27,133 nucleotides of DNA from a virus (taxonomy: Duplodnaviria; Caudoviricetes), in IMG/VR virus record IMGVR_UViG_3300042339_000486, positions 1 through 27,133 of that record, one strand, 5' to 3'. The notes below the pieces were generated by a model. That model did not search any database and was not told where the DNA came from. It worked only from the letters and a program-made list of their open reading frames with translations. Numbering within the stretch: position 1 is the stretch's first letter; the number at the start of each line of letters is the position of its first letter. Both the position numbers and the translations under genes were made by a program. Positions 1-24,541 of this stretch are shown here, piece by piece.

Positions 1-971
1 GGGGCAGCAGACTCGCGCTCCTGACCGCGCTGCGTAATGTCATTCGCCTGATAAATAAAGTTCCTATCAAACTCGTCAGCATTATCAATACGCCGATTAA
101 TAGGCTGATTAGTTACGCGAGACAAAACCTCAACAGCAGCATCCTTCGTCGGCCGCACAGCATTACGATCAGCCCAAGTCTTAGCCGAATCATAAATCGG
201 AACCTCAGTCTGCAAGAAATCATCAACACTCCCAACAGCATCAGCACCACCCTTACCCAAAGCAGCAGCCCCATCAATAACACTCGCAACATAAGGCTTA
301 ACCCGATCAAAGCCCTGCGTCTTCGCAATAGCCGCACCACCCTTAACAAGTTCCGCAGCATAATCAAAAGCCTTATCAACATCCTGCTCCTTGCCGACAG
401 CACCAGCAGCCGCACGAGCAATCGTCACACCGGGCGAAACAAGACCAACACCATAAGTCTCCTTCGCCGTCTCAAAAACTTCGCCAAACGCTCGGCCAAC
501 AACCGGCAAAACGTTATCCGTATAAAAATCGTCAAGGCCCAAATCATCCGCCAGCCCACCAAGGAACCCGGGATCATCATCCTCCTTCCTCTTCTCCGCA
601 ACAATCTTCCTCAAATTAGAATAATCAGGAGTCGCAACCCTCCGCTCACCAGCAAGACGACTCTTCTCAGCACGATCAAAAAGCGTATCCTGACGCTCAA
701 TAGCGCGCTCGCGAACACGAGCCATGATCTTGCCCTTGTCGCCCTTCGTGAAGAACCCGACCCCGCCGCCACCAGTAGCGATACGACCACGAGGAGTCTC
801 AACAAACTTCGGCGTACGCTTCCTAATTACAATGCGCTTCTCAACATCAGTAAGCGGCAACTTGTACGGGCCATAAGCAGGAAGCGGCTGCTTCTTAATC
901 GGAGCAGGACGACCCGGCCCAGACGTGATAATGATTGGCCCCTTCTTGGGGTTACGGGAAGCCGGGGGCAA
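1..971 (-). CDS. Large internal virion/ejection-like protein, N-terminal part (runs off the left edge; absent from the ORF track)
   Basis: Hand translation from TTG at 971 gives MPPASRNPKKGPIIITSGPGRPAPIKKQ...DDPGFLGGLADDLG...GQERESAA, open to base 1. It starts 4 nt after the previous stop. Function is inferred from position after the tail genes. Confidence 0.7.
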   Translation of the reverse strand, partial: MPPASRNPKKGPIIITSGPGRPAPIKKQPLPAYGPYKLPLTDVEKRIVIRKRTPKFVETPRGRIATGGGGVGFFTKGDKGKIMARVRERAIERQDTLFDRAEKSRLAGERRVATPDYSNLRKIVAEKRKEDDDPGFLGGLADDLGLDDFYTDNVLPVVGRAFGEVFETAKETYGVGLVSPGVTIARAAAGAVGKEQDVDKAFDYAAELVKGGAAIAKTQGFDRVKPYVASVIDGAAALGKGGADAVGSVDDFLQTEVPIYDSAKTWADRNAVRPTKDAAVEVLSRVTNQPINRRIDNADEFDRNFIYQANDITQRGQERESAA

Positions 972-975
972 CGTA

Positions 976-1989
976 TTACCCCTGATACGCCTCTCGCACA
1001 GCAGCCGCGTTCATCATGCCAAACGGAGTGCGCATAATCGCATTATAGATTTCTTGCTGGCTAAACGAACCAAGCGTTCCCGCCGAATCAAACATCATCT
1101 CCGCGATCTCGGAAGGCGCGCGCTTCGTAGTACCACGCTCAACAGTCCGCACAGGAATGCCAGAAATCTTAGCCCCCGTCTTCTTCTCAACATACTTCTT
1201 CCAAAACGCGTCACGCTGAGCCTGCGACTTGTTAGCAGGATCAAACGCAACACCCGACACGTCAATCTTTTTCTGCTTGCCGTCACGCGAATCGGTATAA
1301 GTAATCTCCCCCTCGTAACCACCAGTGCCCTTCTTAGAAGAAAGTTCCTTAGCCATGGTGGAAAACGTCGGAATCAAATCATCAATCTGGCCCGTGTCAG
1401 CCTTAGCCAACTCCGACTCGTACTTAGCCAAAGAAAGATTGTAATTACGATCAGACTCGTAAATGCCACGCTGATAATCTTTCTCCTTCAAATCATAAGC
1501 CTTAGCAGTAGCAGCACCCTCAATCTGCGCAGCCTGCTTCTCCCGCTCACCCGCCTCAATGTCAGCACGAGACTGCGTCAAGTACTTACGAAAATCCTGT
1601 GCCCTCTCCTTACGCGCAGTAGTGGCACGACCCTCAACATCAGCCGCCAACTCAACACCACGCCCAGCAGACAGGCGCGGAGCGGCCTCAGCAGCCTGCA
1701 CCTCCCCAGCAATCGAACCAGCAAGCGCACCAGCACCAACATTCTGACCAGCAGCACCCTGAATAGCAGCAAGGCGACTAGCCTGAGCATTAGCCTGCTC
1801 ACGAAGAATATCCCCAAAAGACTTAGTAATACCAGCCGCCGCCGCCGCCTCTCGCCGACGACGATCCTCAATAACCTGAACACTCTCAACAGCATCAGTA
1901 GCAGTCCGCTGCGCCTCACGCTCGCGCTCCCTCCGAGTCTTAAACGGAGTACTGTACGGGCCGGGAGTGACTTTCTTTGGCTTTGCCAT
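976..1989 (-). CDS. Putative internal virion (ejection) protein, Ala/Gln/Glu-rich and helical
   Basis: 337-aa ORF preceded by a purine-rich RBS-like sequence (AAGAAGAGGG). Composition and synteny match podovirus core proteins. Confidence 0.6.
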   Translation of the reverse strand: MAKPKKVTPGPYSTPFKTRREREREAQRTATDAVESVQVIEDRRRREAAAAAGITKSFGDILREQANAQASRLAAIQGAAGQNVGAGALAGSIAGEVQAAEAAPRLSAGRGVELAADVEGRATTARKERAQDFRKYLTQSRADIEAGEREKQAAQIEGAATAKAYDLKEKDYQRGIYESDRNYNLSLAKYESELAKADTGQIDDLIPTFSTMAKELSSKKGTGGYEGEITYTDSRDGKQKKIDVSGVAFDPANKSQAQRDAFWKKYVEKKTGAKISGIPVRTVERGTTKRAPSEIAEMMFDSAGTLGSFSQQEIYNAIMRTPFGMMNAAAVREAYQG

Positions 1990-19373: not shown

Positions 19374-19901
19374 AAAGCGACAATAGCACAACAGCAGTAG
19401 TCACGAACATACGATTTATCGTGCATATGTACGATATTTACACACCAACACCACCCACAGTGTAGAAAACCTACACACCGAGTCGTGATACTCTAAACAT
19501 AACGCCGAATCCCCCGCTTAGGAGAAACGGCACACAGTAACCGCAAGCCTCGTCGAAGCACTGACGCAGAAACCGCACCACGGACTGCCATCAGACGACC
19601 AGACAATGTCCCGGCAACGGCTAGGCCGGATCGTGCAGGGACGTCAAGCACGTAAAACGGAAGACGGTTAGCCACAAGGCTAGGAGGGCCAAAGAAGAAC
19701 TGGCACAACCATCATCCTGAGAAGAAGCCTACACAAAAATCGTACCCACAAAAAAGAAAGCCCGAGGATGGGTACGACGTCGGGCGGCGCGGGTGGGGTT
19801 CTCGCTCGGGCGGGCGGGCGGCGTAGATAGCGCGGGCGCGCACGGCGCGGGGTAGGGGCCAACGCGCGCGAAGGACGCACACACCATCGGCGGGTTGTAG
19901 T

Positions 19902-19974
19902 TGTAAGGATTATGTAAAGGTTTGGTTTGGTGGTGATTCGTCTGCTATGATGGGTGAACACCGAATGGAAGGGG
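19902..19974 (+). promoter_or_regulatory. Early promoter P1 (tandem box inverted)
   Basis: TGTAAG-N5-TGTAAA (19902-19918), TGcTATGAT (-10 at 19946-19951), GGGTGAACACC, and RBS GGAAGGGG (19967-19974). Confidence 0.65.
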
Positions 19975-20622: not shown

Positions 20623-20667
20623 TGGGGGGTGGCTGGCCCTGCCGGGTTCGAATCCCGGCACCCCCCA
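20623..20667 (+). ncRNA. Minimal tRNA-like element (acceptor-like stem plus T arm, no anticodon arm)
   Basis: TGGGGGGTG/CACCCCCCA stem enclosing a 10-nt linker and a canonical T arm CCGGG-TTCGAAT-CCCGG. Confidence 0.6.
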
Positions 20668-20752: not shown

Positions 20753-20822
20753 AATCCTTACGGAATCTTTACAAACTTCGCCGCCGGGGTGCGTTATAGT
20801 GTGGGTACACCAACGGAAGGGG
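20753..20822 (+). promoter_or_regulatory. Early promoter cassette P2
   Basis: AATCCTTAC-GG-AATCTTTACA, 21 nt, TATAGT, GTGGGTACACC, and RBS GGAAGGGG. Confidence 0.8.
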
Positions 20823-21128: not shown

Positions 21129-21944
21129 ATGACCTATAGCAACCGCGTACTACGCGCCGTCACCGCAACGGTGGCCGCCATCGATGAGCACTACCCGGTC
21201 AAGTCGGAGGGTAGCCTGCTCACCACCACCAACCCGAAAGTGGCGAAGGGTGCCGCCGATATGGGCTACTTGCCCGCCGTCCTGCACCTAGCGCCCGCCA
21301 CCATGTCGGGTGCCAACGTATGCCCATGGGCTAGCGTCGAATGTACCGCCGTCTGCCTGAACACTTCGGGCCGGGGAGGTATTGGCCTTGACGCTAGCGG
21401 GTGGAACGTGATTCAGGCTAGCCGGATTCGTCGCACCGCCCGGATGATCCTTGACCCGGAAGGGTTTAGCGCCCGCATCTGTCGCGAGATCACGAATCAT
21501 GCCCGCAACGCGCGACGGCATGGCCTCACGCCCGCGCTGCGCCTGAACGGCACGTCCGATATCGCTTGGCATCGCACGTTCCCCGAGGTGGTAGCCCACG
21601 CTATCGCGGAGGGCTGCATCCTGTACGACTACACGAAGCGGCCGAAGCCTGACGCTGCCGAGCACGGCATCGACGTGACGTATTCCTACCCGGGCGGGCA
21701 GGGAGAGGCGGCGCGCCGTTATCTGGAAGCCGGGCACCGCGTAGCAGTAGTCTTCGCCACCCGCAAGGGGGCACCGCTGCCCGCAACGTGGACGGCACCG
21801 TGGGGAGGCACGTATCCCGTCATCGACGGGGACGCGCACGACCTCCGATTCGCTGACGCGGGCGGCGTGATCGTCGGGCTACGCGCGAAGGGGAATGCGC
21901 GCGGCATGCAGGGGACGCGGCACGGATTCCTGCAGGCTCCGTGA
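21129..21944 (+). CDS. GP88-family protein (putative Fe-S / radical-SAM-like fold)
   Basis: LHLAPA..SGANVCPWASVECTAVCLNTSGRG, LRLNGTSDIAW, YDYTK and VIDGDAHDLRF.D....IVGLRAKG motifs. Confidence 0.8.
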   Translation: MTYSNRVLRAVTATVAAIDEHYPVKSEGSLLTTTNPKVAKGAADMGYLPAVLHLAPATMSGANVCPWASVECTAVCLNTSGRGGIGLDASGWNVIQASRIRRTARMILDPEGFSARICREITNHARNARRHGLTPALRLNGTSDIAWHRTFPEVVAHAIAEGCILYDYTKRPKPDAAEHGIDVTYSYPGGQGEAARRYLEAGHRVAVVFATRKGAPLPATWTAPWGGTYPVIDGDAHDLRFADAGGVIVGLRAKGNARGMQGTRHGFLQAP

Positions 21945-21996
21945 TCCTTACAAAATCCGAACACACTACGCACCAGACAAGGGGTACGATAAAACT
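21943..21996 (+). promoter_or_regulatory. Early promoter cassette P4 (leaderless)
   Basis: GATCCTTAC-AA-AATCCGAACA, 21 nt, TACGAT, N6, ATG. Confidence 0.7.
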
Positions 21997-22224
21997 ATGG
22001 ACAAGACAGAGAAGCGCGCCGATATCATCGCCGATACACTGACCATCGCAGAGATCGGGCACGTCGCCGAAGGGCTACGGTACTGGCTGAACCTGCCCGG
22101 ATCCGAATTGTCGCCGCACTTCAGCGACGTGTACGCTACGCGTCGGCTCATGCTGGACGCACTATCGTCGGCCGAGCGTAACGAATACGCGGGCGACTAC
22201 GACTACCCGGAGGGGGCAGCATGA
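21997..22224 (+). CDS. Early hypothetical protein (75 aa; start revised to MDKTEK)
   Basis: Start follows P4; ATGA coupling downstream. Confidence 0.7.
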   Translation: MDKTEKRADIIADTLTIAEIGHVAEGLRYWLNLPGSELSPHFSDVYATRRLMLDALSSAERNEYAGDYDYPEGAA

Positions 22225-22430
22225 AATACGATCCTACACACGACTTCACCCCGCTACGGCGCTACTGCCGACGCAACGGGGCAGGGGAGGCACTCCCGTG
22301 GGAGTACATGGGGCACGACGACAATGGGAACGCGCACTACCGAGAGCGGGAGAACGGGAACCGGCTCTGCCTGAACCCGAACGGACGGCTCGGGTGCATC
22401 CACCGCATCCGAACCGTCGACCTGAGATAG
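22221..22430 (+). CDS. Early hypothetical protein (69 aa)
   Basis: GGAGGGG RBS and ATGA overlap. Confidence 0.7.
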   Translation: MKYDPTHDFTPLRRYCRRNGAGEALPWEYMGHDDNGNAHYRERENGNRLCLNPNGRLGCIHRIRTVDLR

Positions 22431-22431
22431 A

Positions 22432-22503
22432 AATCCTTACAAACTTTTTACAAACTCAGCCACAATCATGTGGCATAGTATGGGTACACCACCAGAAGGG
22501 GAC
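22432..22503 (+). promoter_or_regulatory. Early promoter cassette P5
   Basis: AATCCTTAC-AA-ACTTTTTACA, 21 nt, TGgCATAGT, ATGGGTACACC, and RBS GAAGGGGAC. Confidence 0.8.
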
Positions 22504-22506
22504 ACC

Positions 22507-22956
22507 ATGAACACCATCGACACCGACACCGCAGACACCGACGTGCTCCGCGCCCAGATCCGCGAGATCAGCGCAGAGAACGACGACCGCCTCACCATCA
22601 TCGAAGAACTTCGCCGGGCCAACCTCAAGACAATCGGAGACATGAACGTAGCCGTCGCCCTGCTCCGTGAGATGGCAACCATCGCCGAGGAAGGCATGCG
22701 CCGGGCCTGCGAGAACGACGAGAGATTCGCCAACCTCGTCATCAATTACGACATCATGGACCTGACCTCCGAGTATGAGATCCGTATCACGGTGCCCGTC
22801 ACCATGACGATCATCATCAGCGGCGACAGCGAGGACGACGCGCTGGAGGGCGTCGGCGAGCACCTGTCCAACGAGGTCACCGTCGACGTCCACGGAGTAG
22901 AGGACTACGACTTCGACTCGTACGACTTCGACATCCAGAACGTCTGCAAGGCGTAG
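22507..22956 (+). CDS. Acidic early hypothetical protein (149 aa; start revised to MNTIDT)
   Basis: ATG follows the RBS. N-terminal coiled coil and a very D/E-rich C-terminal domain. Confidence 0.75.
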   Translation: MNTIDTDTADTDVLRAQIREISAENDDRLTIIEELRRANLKTIGDMNVAVALLREMATIAEEGMRRACENDERFANLVINYDIMDLTSEYEIRITVPVTMTIIISGDSEDDALEGVGEHLSNEVTVDVHGVEDYDFDSYDFDIQNVCKA

Positions 22957-22965
22957 CACTACCCA

Positions 22966-23026
22966 TCCGGCATCCCGCACTGATGAGCGCCGGACGAAAC
23001 ACCCGCCACGACGGGGGTGTCTGCGG
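22966..23026 (+). ncRNA. Type I hammerhead ribozyme with loop II pseudoknot
   Basis: Stem I CCGCA/TGCGG; core CTGATGA (22980-22986); G-C closed loop II; GAAA (22996-22999); stem III ACACCC/GGGTGT; cleavage triplet GTC (23019-23021). Loop II GCCGGA pairs with upstream TCCGGC. Confidence 0.88.
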
Positions 23027-23059
23027 ACAGGCTAGCCAGTACTGGCGAACCTCTCCCAA

Positions 23060-23164
23060 GGGAACCACGACCCGCTAACAACGGGGCTAAATGGAAAATC
23101 GGGTTTGTTAGGCCCGAGTAATCCCCCCGCATCCACCAATGCGATGCGGCTGGGCGCGGTTCCC
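23060..23164. ncRNA. Unclassified multi-stem pseudoknotted RNA candidate
   Basis: Closing stem GGGAACC/GGTTCCC, internal stems, and a 7-nt loop TTGTTAG complementary to CTAACAA. Strand is ambiguous. Confidence 0.5.
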
Positions 23165-23172
23165 CGGTAAGA

Positions 23173-23232
23173 ACTCCTTACCAAATCATAACAACAGCCA
23201 TACTCTAACCTGTGGTACGGTATGGGTACACC
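23173..23232 (+). promoter_or_regulatory. Early promoter cassette P6
   Basis: ACTCCTTAC-CA-AATCATAACA, 22 nt, TGgTACGGT, ATGGGTACACC. Confidence 0.75.
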
Positions 23233-23252
23233 CCAAGAACGGAGAAGGAAAC

Positions 23253-24257
23253 ATGATCGAACACGCAACCGGTGGCATCCTTGAGAACGACGGAGCCTTC
23301 TACGGTGGACGCCAGCCCGCATGGCACCGCCTCGGCACCGTCATCGACGAGGACGTGGTCACCAGCGCCGAGGCCATCCGCCTCGCCGGACTGGACTGGA
23401 CGGTGGAGCAGCACGACATCCACGTCCACGTCCCCAACGGCGACGACATGCCCGACACGACCACGCTCATCCCCGACAAGGTCGCGAACGTCCGCATGGA
23501 CACGAACGGCACGCTCGGCATCGTCACCCCCCGCTACAAGATCGTCCAGAACGTCGACGCGTTCGACTTCTTCGACGAGATCATCGGCAAGGGTGACGCG
23601 CACTACCACACCGCAGGTAGCCTGTTCAACGGGCGCAAGGTCTGGGCGCTCGCTCGCCTGAACCGGGACATCCTGATCGGTGGCGACGAGTCGGAGCGCA
23701 TCGACCCCTTCGTCGCCCTCTGCAACGGGCACGACGGGAACACGTCGCTCAGCGTCTACACCACGCCGGTCCGTGTGGTCTGCCAGAACACGCTGCAGTG
23801 GAGCATGCAGGGAACTAAGAACATGTGGAAGGGCAGGCACACGCCGAACGTGACCGACAAGGTGCGGGACGCGCGTGACATGCTCGGCTTCAGCAACGAG
23901 TACTTCGACCAGTTGCAAACGCTGGGCGACAGCCTCATCCGGCAGCCCATCAACCGCATCTCGTTCGACCGGATGCTGGAGATGCTCGTCCCGCTCCCCG
24001 CCCCGAAGGACGAGGAGAGCACACGCGGACTGACCATCGCGCAGAACACGCGCGAGGCAATCCACGCAGCATGGGACGTGGACAACCTCGCGAACGTCAA
24101 GAACACCAAGTGGGGCTTCGTGCAGGCCGTCGCCGAGTACGTCGACTGGAGCAAGACTCACCGCTCCGACGACAGGTTCATCGACCAGAACCTGCTCGGC
24201 GCAAACCAGAACGTCACGCTCAAGGATCGCAGCGTGGCCGTGGCGCTCGCCGCCTAA
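23253..24257 (+). CDS. DUF932-family (TIGR03299-like phage/plasmid) protein (334 aa; start revised)
   Basis: PAWHRLG, AGLDWTV, YKIVQNVDAFDFFD, TAGSLFNGRKVW, NGHDG, TPVRVVCQNTL and TKWGFVQAVAEYVD motifs. AGAAGGA RBS. Confidence 0.9.
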   Translation: MIEHATGGILENDGAFYGGRQPAWHRLGTVIDEDVVTSAEAIRLAGLDWTVEQHDIHVHVPNGDDMPDTTTLIPDKVANVRMDTNGTLGIVTPRYKIVQNVDAFDFFDEIIGKGDAHYHTAGSLFNGRKVWALARLNRDILIGGDESERIDPFVALCNGHDGNTSLSVYTTPVRVVCQNTLQWSMQGTKNMWKGRHTPNVTDKVRDARDMLGFSNEYFDQLQTLGDSLIRQPINRISFDRMLEMLVPLPAPKDEESTRGLTIAQNTREAIHAAWDVDNLANVKNTKWGFVQAVAEYVDWSKTHRSDDRFIDQNLLGANQNVTLKDRSVAVALAA

Positions 24258-24264
24258 CCGAATC

Positions 24265-24303
24265 CACCCCCGCCCGACCTATCCATCGCTCCGGGCGGGG
24301 GTG
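24265..24303 (+). terminator. GC-rich hairpin after the DUF932 gene (terminator-like or stabiliser)
   Basis: Perfect 12-bp stem CACCCCCGCCCG/CGGGCGGGGGTG. There is no U tract. Confidence 0.5.
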
Positions 24304-24331
24304 AGATCCACCATCAAACGAAAGGAACAAG

Positions 24332-24541
24332 ATGCCGAAGAACATCCTGTGGTACAGCATGGCTGACCATTCGCACGGCGCATGCGCAGCCCACGACATG
24401 CTGATCGTCGACGCCGACGACCTCACCCCAGAGGAGGGGCGCGCACTATACGAGGCGTCACAAGACGACACCGAGATCCTTCCCGACATCATGCTCGGGA
24501 TCTACTACCGACAGAACCCGGAGGCCGACCCATGTGGATGA
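24332..24541 (+). CDS. Hypothetical protein (69 aa)
   Basis: GAAAGGAA RBS; codon usage consistent with neighbours. Confidence 0.7.
   Translation: MPKNILWYSMADHSHGACAAHDMLIVDADDLTPEEGRALYEASQDDTEILPDIMLGIYYRQNPEADPCG

Follow-up and report, generated by a model that had tools for sequence, protein, structure and literature searches.

What does a hammerhead ribozyme cut for in a phage genome? In the accessible part of PMC6765202, what self-cleaving ribozymes do in bacteria and phages is called largely elusive, and an earlier note on the DNA studied here, made from its letters, pointed to a hammerhead with a one-pair stem II behind a stop codon. The window (the whole stretch of DNA analysed, 27,133 nt) is the virus record IMGVR_UViG_3300042339_000486 (Caudoviricetes; 27 kb, estimated completeness 72%), the sequence of which is present in lake-water DNA sequencing runs; no RNA run was among the matches listed, which is no evidence on expression either way. 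Terminase, portal and capsid genes lie on its minus strand and small early genes on its plus strand, and a complete 39-kb relative (G010) is identical to it at the hammerhead site. The hammerhead region sits in a 296-nt gap between a 149-aa ORF and a DUF932 gene (Table 1). The locus raises the questions of whether the ribozyme is real, what stands behind it, and which RNA its cleavage would serve.

Table 1. Features of the hammerhead locus and its flanks, in window coordinates
Feature	Position	Strand	Basis or remark
Upstream early-region ORF, 149 aa	22507..22956, alternative start 22468	+	no PHROG or Pfam family
Pseudoknot 5' tail strand, 6 bp with loop II	22966..22971	+	sequence; duplex -10.2 kcal/mol, loop costs not included
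Type I hammerhead	22975..23026	+	sequence, Rfam match, 6-sequence alignment, descriptor
Hammerhead stem I	22975-22979 with 23022-23026	+	5 bp, read from sequence
Hammerhead stem III	22999-23007 with 23013-23020	+	8 bp, one bulge
Variable hairpin, 5' end of predicted 3' cleavage product	23022..23058	+	predicted fold, 6/6 sequences
Motif 2, unclassified four-way-junction RNA	23060..23164	+ (putative)	covariation, loop complementarity, folding z
Motif 2 helix P1	23060-66/23158-64	+ (putative)	7-bp closing helix
Motif 2 helix P2	23069-74/23082-88	+ (putative)	hairpin, loop 23075-81
Motif 2 helix P3	23099-103/23113-17	+ (putative)	hairpin, loop 23105-11
Motif 2 variable helix P4	23123-54	+ (putative)	15-40 nt among copies
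Promoter-like box copy, repeat families D1, D4, D17	23173..23242	+	repeated before early genes
DUF932 protein, 334 aa	23253..24257	+	PF06067 E 4e-53; phrog_1221

The hammerhead and its known counterparts

The analysis confirmed the element as a real type I hammerhead ribozyme, for which self-cleavage is predicted. Its core is complete, as the earlier note had it, with CUGAUGA (22980-22986), GAAA (22996-22999) and GUC (23019-23021) read directly from the sequence, and stems I and III are intact as described there. Stem II is indeed a single G22987-C22995 pair, but loop II has to be corrected to seven nucleotides (22988-22994), of which only six (22989-22994) pair. The 6-bp pseudoknot that had been proposed supplies the tertiary contact of loop II with the region of stem I; it is a predicted pairing of loop II with the 5' tail strand, in which relatives show compensatory change. 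Identity and geometry of the element hold, and so does the predicted cleavage site after C23021 (23021/23022). The suggested check against hammerhead covariance models came out in part: the best Rfam match is RAGATH-1-hammerhead (22975-23026; 33.3 bits, E 5e-4 in a 271-nt stretch), at a score under the gathering cut-off of 56.3, and on the whole window the score is 29.4 bits (E 0.34). An Rfam Hammerhead_II match at 22992-23061 (18 bits) was rejected, its core being broken. The window holds one hammerhead copy. The bare core pattern was met in 6 of 100 window shuffles and a type I descriptor (at least 4 bp in each of stems I and III, pseudoknot not required) in 1 of 300; plain folding misses the hammerhead fold (z -0.39), as is expected of a pseudoknot.

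Pattern searches and protein-anchored searches gave six distinct hammerhead sequences (the window, L001, L132, L130, L133 and L175). In their alignment 119 of 120 cells are paired, pseudoknot included, while slid controls pair 35-50%, and all six keep the type I core, with CUGANGA, GAAA and NUH following one another correctly. Both-sided changes were found once in the pseudoknot (L133, end pair, U-A to A-U) and once in stem III (L175), and the L001 pseudoknot carries a single A-A mismatch. Since 25 of 500 column shuffles reach the observed level, covariation alone is supportive but borderline. At the level of sequence, conservation is the stronger argument: the hammerhead is 89-100% identical in the five relatives, whereas the upstream protein is only 30-39% identical (L130, L132, L175). 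The L133 core differs by U7A and a GUA triplet, both of which are tolerated hammerhead changes.

The design itself is already known, and the window element is an ordinary new example of it, a minor variant. RAGATH-1 (RF03152) shares the type I topology, the canonical core and a single G-C stem II with a 7-nt loop, but the window hammerhead covers only model positions 26-77 and leaves the 5' hairpin of the model (1-25) unmatched; the partner of loop II is here a single-stranded tail 3 nt before stem I. The L175 copy likewise scores 33.2 bits, below 56.3. Although RAGATH-1 is the type I counterpart, the window hammerhead is not filed as a member of it. A relaxed hammerhead scan returned 22 loci, with six contigs of this group and the unrelated viral contigs L208 and L209 (~1482-1547, minus strand); these two carry type I hammerheads with a one-pair stem II, with RAGATH-1 scores of 26.6 and 47 bits, and the L209 match spans model positions 1-77. 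A one-pair stem II together with a 6-bp pseudoknot occurs in a type II hammerhead assayed by Perreault et al. 2011 (PMC3088659, Fig. 4). According to the part of that paper that was accessible, it cleaves at more than 1.2 per min in 0.5 mM Mg2+, disruption of the pseudoknot abolishes cleavage and compensation restores it, and pseudoknots are found in about 40% of hammerheads. The 2011 example is of type II and pairs loop I with a 3' tail, whereas that of the window is of type I and pairs loop II with a 5' tail, and a linked downstream RNA is not mentioned for the former in the accessible part (PMC3088659).

A further question is whether the hammerhead can form in its context, next to a variable spacer hairpin of 38-70 nt (35-94% identity to the window) that in predicted folds draws the 3' strand of stem I, partly or mostly, into new pairs, with at least the last two stem I bases so paired in all six sequences. 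If this hairpin captured the strand before the cut, the ribozyme would be inactive, a reading in line with modelled energies that, when the pseudoknot is left out, put the rival fold ahead by 1.4-2.9 kcal/mol in five of six sequences. Stem I trails the unconstrained fold in this model by only 0.6-2.9 kcal/mol, however, and the pseudoknot duplex would add up to -10.2 kcal/mol before loop costs and would tip the balance towards the active fold before the cut; moreover, the core is intact in all six, with changes that are compensatory or fall at tolerated positions, so that we regard inactivity as highly improbable. A population variant, T23033C, was also seen in the spacer hairpin (runs X16 and X17).

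The structured RNA downstream

A second structure, absent from the earlier note and here called motif 2, starts 38 nt downstream of the predicted cut. It is 81-105 nt long across copies, its linker RUAAU is conserved and its unpaired junction bases are invariant. Neither MAFFT nor the covariance model places the 5' strand of P3 correctly, and pairs were therefore counted by a script on segments cut at conserved anchors: 111 of 114 cells are paired and 7 of 19 helix pairs show both-sided change, counts that ignore phylogeny and come from six related sequences. Two of these differ over P1-P3 by a single base, and with sequences so few and related the changes are not independent events. The both-sided changes fall in P1, P2, P3 and the closing pair of P4. 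In the window the loops of P2 and P3 are complementary over 7 bp, and the complementarity (7, 7, 7, 7, 6 and 5 bp in the copies) is kept in three sequence versions, loops of different versions pairing over only 2-5 bp; cognate pairing is best or tied in all six copies, and pairing as long as that observed arises in 38-428 of 20000 trials with shuffled loops. The folding z is -3.3 in the window, the six copies giving -3.3, -0.7, -2.1, -1.9, -5.6 and -2.4.

At E<=10 no Rfam 15 model, among them ribozymes, riboswitches, packaging RNA and SRP Alu, matched either strand of motif 2 in the window, L175 or L130, apart from one unrelated plastid 3'UTR hairpin model in L175 (E 9.7). Readings of motif 2 as twister, pistol, hatchet, hairpin or HDV-like ribozyme were compared by eye with consensus features and rejected, and the Rfam scans agree. 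Purine riboswitches, the SRP Alu domain and phi29 packaging RNA presumably offer the nearest likeness, in that adjacent hairpins are joined loop to loop; they share complementary-loop hairpins, a multi-way junction and a short linker with motif 2, which stands apart by its four helices, its loop complementarity of 5-7 bp and the want of an Rfam match. Unlike phi29, the phage of the window has a large and a small terminase. No terminator-like site was found on the plus strand in 21800-24400 and no U-tract follows P1, which leaves the 3' end of motif 2 undefined.

Searches for further copies returned little. Three pattern scans of viral contigs gave 3 loci, one a chance match, at least 120 loci in 19 of 64 parts, among which only the known copies were real, and 16 loci, with six real and all known. 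Metagenome contigs gave 5 loci with one real, identical to L002; one genome-contig locus that matched the pattern was rejected as a coding-like stretch (16 bits with R2, the motif 2 model), and blastn of cultured phages gave short chance matches only. R2 matched none of 100 further loci, gave 5 matches, all known, on 21 whole records, and had no match in L208 or L209. Because the patterns were derived from close relatives, diverged members would be missed. No description of the cassette, by which we mean hammerhead and motif 2 together, was found in the literature on hammerheads and phage structured RNAs, where coverage lay largely outside subscription papers. Fremin et al. 2023 list more than ten thousand phage RNA candidates in the part of that work available to us (PMC10690425); motif 2 is absent from six of its supplementary files, with files 1, 2 and 4, which may contain it, excluded, and from one supplementary file of PMC10085705. 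Judged by sequence, motif 2 is a conserved, uncatalogued compact RNA and is the new part of the finding.

Motif 2 probably acts from the plus strand. It might instead be a minus-strand RNA, antisense or independent, that has no more than the interval in common with the hammerhead: the modelled energy of the minus-strand form is lower or equal in five of six copies, and an invariant A-C next to P1, as well as the L001 change in P1, become G-U pairs. Yet the spacer hairpin has the same minus bias in five of six copies despite a plus-strand GAAA tetraloop in L130, so that the bias looks compositional; no minus -10-like hexamer is common to all six (within 90 nt, L175 lacks any), plus-strand linkers are rich in A, and P4 wobbles in L130 and L133 favour plus, which makes a minus-strand origin rather improbable. 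In another observation on P4, a contig in X20 has, past 23129, the P4 of L001 type, a switch suggestive of recombination inside the cassette.

Linkage and genomic setting of the copies

Motif 2 follows the hammerhead in all six copies, 38-70 nt downstream. Among 12 loci with a DUF932 protein at least 71% identical, six carry both elements and six neither, and both are missing from 13 more distant DUF932 loci. The whole records G001 (86% complete) and G003 (complete) gave no cassette match; since complete relatives do without it, the cassette is accessory. L175, which branches first in the close group, carries it behind the homologous ORF. One origin with two losses fits this distribution, but the DUF932 tree, which requires 3 changes (135 of 500 shuffles are as low), does not establish it and leaves gain against loss unresolved. 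The upstream ORF has 18 homologues, all unnamed or hypothetical, and homologues of 30-39% identity precede the same site in L130, L132, L134, L136 and L175.

The position 9 nt after a stop codon in sense orientation, claimed at the outset, holds for the window (stop 22954-22956) but not as a rule. A stop codon lies 9-16 nt before the copies of the window, L132, L130 and L175, whereas placement differs in L001 and L133. In L001 the last gene ends at 521 and an early promoter-like box lies directly before the pseudoknot strand with no ORF between; the X16 contig has the same upstream sequence as the L001 arrangement at a contig end (loose end at 22967). In L133 (1316-1522) a 68-aa ORF ends at the UGA of the hammerhead catalytic core; its translation would cross the pseudoknot strand and stem I, and coupling of translation and cleavage is possible there. 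Three kinds of genes lie downstream of motif 2. A promoter-like box stands between motif 2 and the next gene in five of six copies; in L175 a ribosome-binding site follows about 18 nt after P1, with no promoter-like box between, and the gene lies directly behind motif 2.

The promoter role of these boxes is drawn from their position before early genes, since a canonical sigma-70 scan gave 0 matches. They are repeated at 20753, 21057, 21943, 22432, 23173 and 25179 of the window, with an inverted copy at 19897-19922, often doubled with 11-nt spacing and set 21-25 nt from a -10-like hexamer; they are likely promoter or activator sites. At 21943 an ATG lies 6 nt past the hexamer, which suggests a leaderless message.

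Cassette-free relatives carry other structures in the same region. In L134 a hairpin of 14 bp (-29.3 kcal/mol), with no U-tract, stands at ~2885-2925, after the stop codon and before the promoter-like box. In the L136/L138 lineage a ribosome-binding site is preceded by a tRNA-like minihelix; in L136 the copy that follows the homologous ORF was read by eye. The leader of that lineage is itself repeated (L172 4915, L173 4274, L174 5336, L138 1662 and a second L136 copy at ~2720-2790) and consists of a T-loop minihelix, CCA-like bases, a small hairpin and the ribosome-binding site, with compensatory changes between copies. A reading of the short L136/L138 hairpin as a deleted hammerhead was rejected, as a second, covaried copy exists in L172/L173. 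The window has a tRNA-like minihelix of its own at 20625-20665 (plus strand), between early transcription units, with a 7-bp acceptor-like stem and a T-arm with canonical T-loop, without D or anticodon arm and not called by ARAGORN; it is possibly an RNase P or RNase Z processing site.

As to the phage itself, DUF932 relatives are mostly in actinobacterial phages, and the terminase and GP88 matches are mixed and only 24-39% identical, so that these do not fix the host. The GP88-family gene (PF17338, 21129-21944) is related to genes of mycobacteriophages and of Pelagibacter, Xanthomonas and other phages. On the minus strand, L216 (23-6199) continues window 3-971 as a protein of more than 2000 aa that ends the structural module and bears an ADP-ribosyltransferase family domain (PF03496, E 4e-15), which brings to mind the phage proteins that are injected to modify host enzymes. 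A reading as a mobile element that encodes an enzyme of its own was rejected: the ORFs scanned contained no reverse transcriptase, TnpB, RtcB or Ro60 family, and no partner enzyme family among them.

What the cut may serve

We propose, with a probability of about 0.5, that the hammerhead makes the 5'-OH end of an uncatalogued phage non-coding RNA, so that hammerhead and motif 2 would form a self-maturing cassette. Related phages have both elements or neither, which makes release of the motif 2 RNA a likely service of the cut, and the L001 copy, with no upstream gene and hence no mRNA to trim, points to the downstream product as its likely object; a gene-free unit together with a constant partner would make that product the purpose of the cut. 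In such a scheme the pseudoknot would replace stem II and favour the active fold during transcription, and after the cut the freed strand would refold into the neighbouring hairpin, releasing the product and hindering re-ligation. The modelled refolding of the product strand in all six sequences is in support of this. The hairpin would leave a paired 5'-OH end resistant to 5'-end-dependent RNases, as paired 5'-OH ends are. The product, about 140 nt or longer, would be a stable early phage RNA with motif 2 as its functional body, and the kissing-loop core may bind a partner or another copy of itself. A counter-example to such resistance of the 5' end is glmS, where cleavage leads to decay according to the accessible part of PMC6765202.

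The main rival, which we regard as less likely, is a transcript-boundary device. Here the hammerhead would sever the polycistronic early transcript after the upstream gene, and motif 2 would have a role in cis, be it as a stop, as a roadblock to nucleases or as a leader setting stability or translation of the sequence behind it, with no free functional RNA. That cassette-free relatives bear other structures at the site, the hairpin of L134 and the minihelix of the L136/L138 lineage, supports it, and so does L175, whose gene directly behind motif 2 fits a leader equally well and counts against a free RNA. mRNA processing is also the published proposal for phage hammerheads in the accessible parts of PMC3088659 and PMC6765202, and in the former, phage hammerhead arrays cut polycistronic early transcripts. 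The window resembles those arrays in its intergenic, sense-strand position within a phage region of small early genes, but differs in its single copy and linkage to a non-coding structure, and in L001 by the missing preceding gene (PMC3088659, as far as accessible). Against a boundary device speak that gene-free L001 unit, the promoter-like box that separates motif 2 from the next gene in five of six copies, and the covarying kissing-loop junction with invariant bases, which, with no U-tract, exceeds the needs of a terminator.

On the other hand, motif 2 might itself be a self-cleaving ribozyme of an undescribed class, in which case two ribozymes would excise the variable hairpin or cut opposite strands. 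The reading is suggested by the enrichment of ribozymes near ribozymes, bacterial self-cleaving ribozymes being enriched next to one another in the accessible parts of PMC10085705 and PMC6765202, and the type is matched by a length of 81-105 nt, by a pseudoknot, by unpaired junction bases that do not vary and by a single helix (15-40 nt) free to vary. The same features are, however, common to many non-catalytic RNAs, and invariance in six close sequences is weak; moreover, Rfam gave no ribozyme match on either strand at E<=10, and the 45 ORFs of this phage that were scanned against Pfam contained neither an RNA ligase nor a reverse transcriptase family, and we regard a second ribozyme as quite unlikely. 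If it were true, the locus would be a natural two-ribozyme phage device that makes a small RNA with ligation-ready ends; positions like that of motif 2 have yielded new ribozyme classes before.

For the self-maturing cassette that we favour, the role in question is 5' end maturation of a non-coding RNA. The hammerhead here has a constant downstream partner, comes also in a gene-free form after a promoter-like box, and is missing with the whole cassette from some natural relatives, which makes this role of a phage hammerhead testable with a 215-nt transcript.
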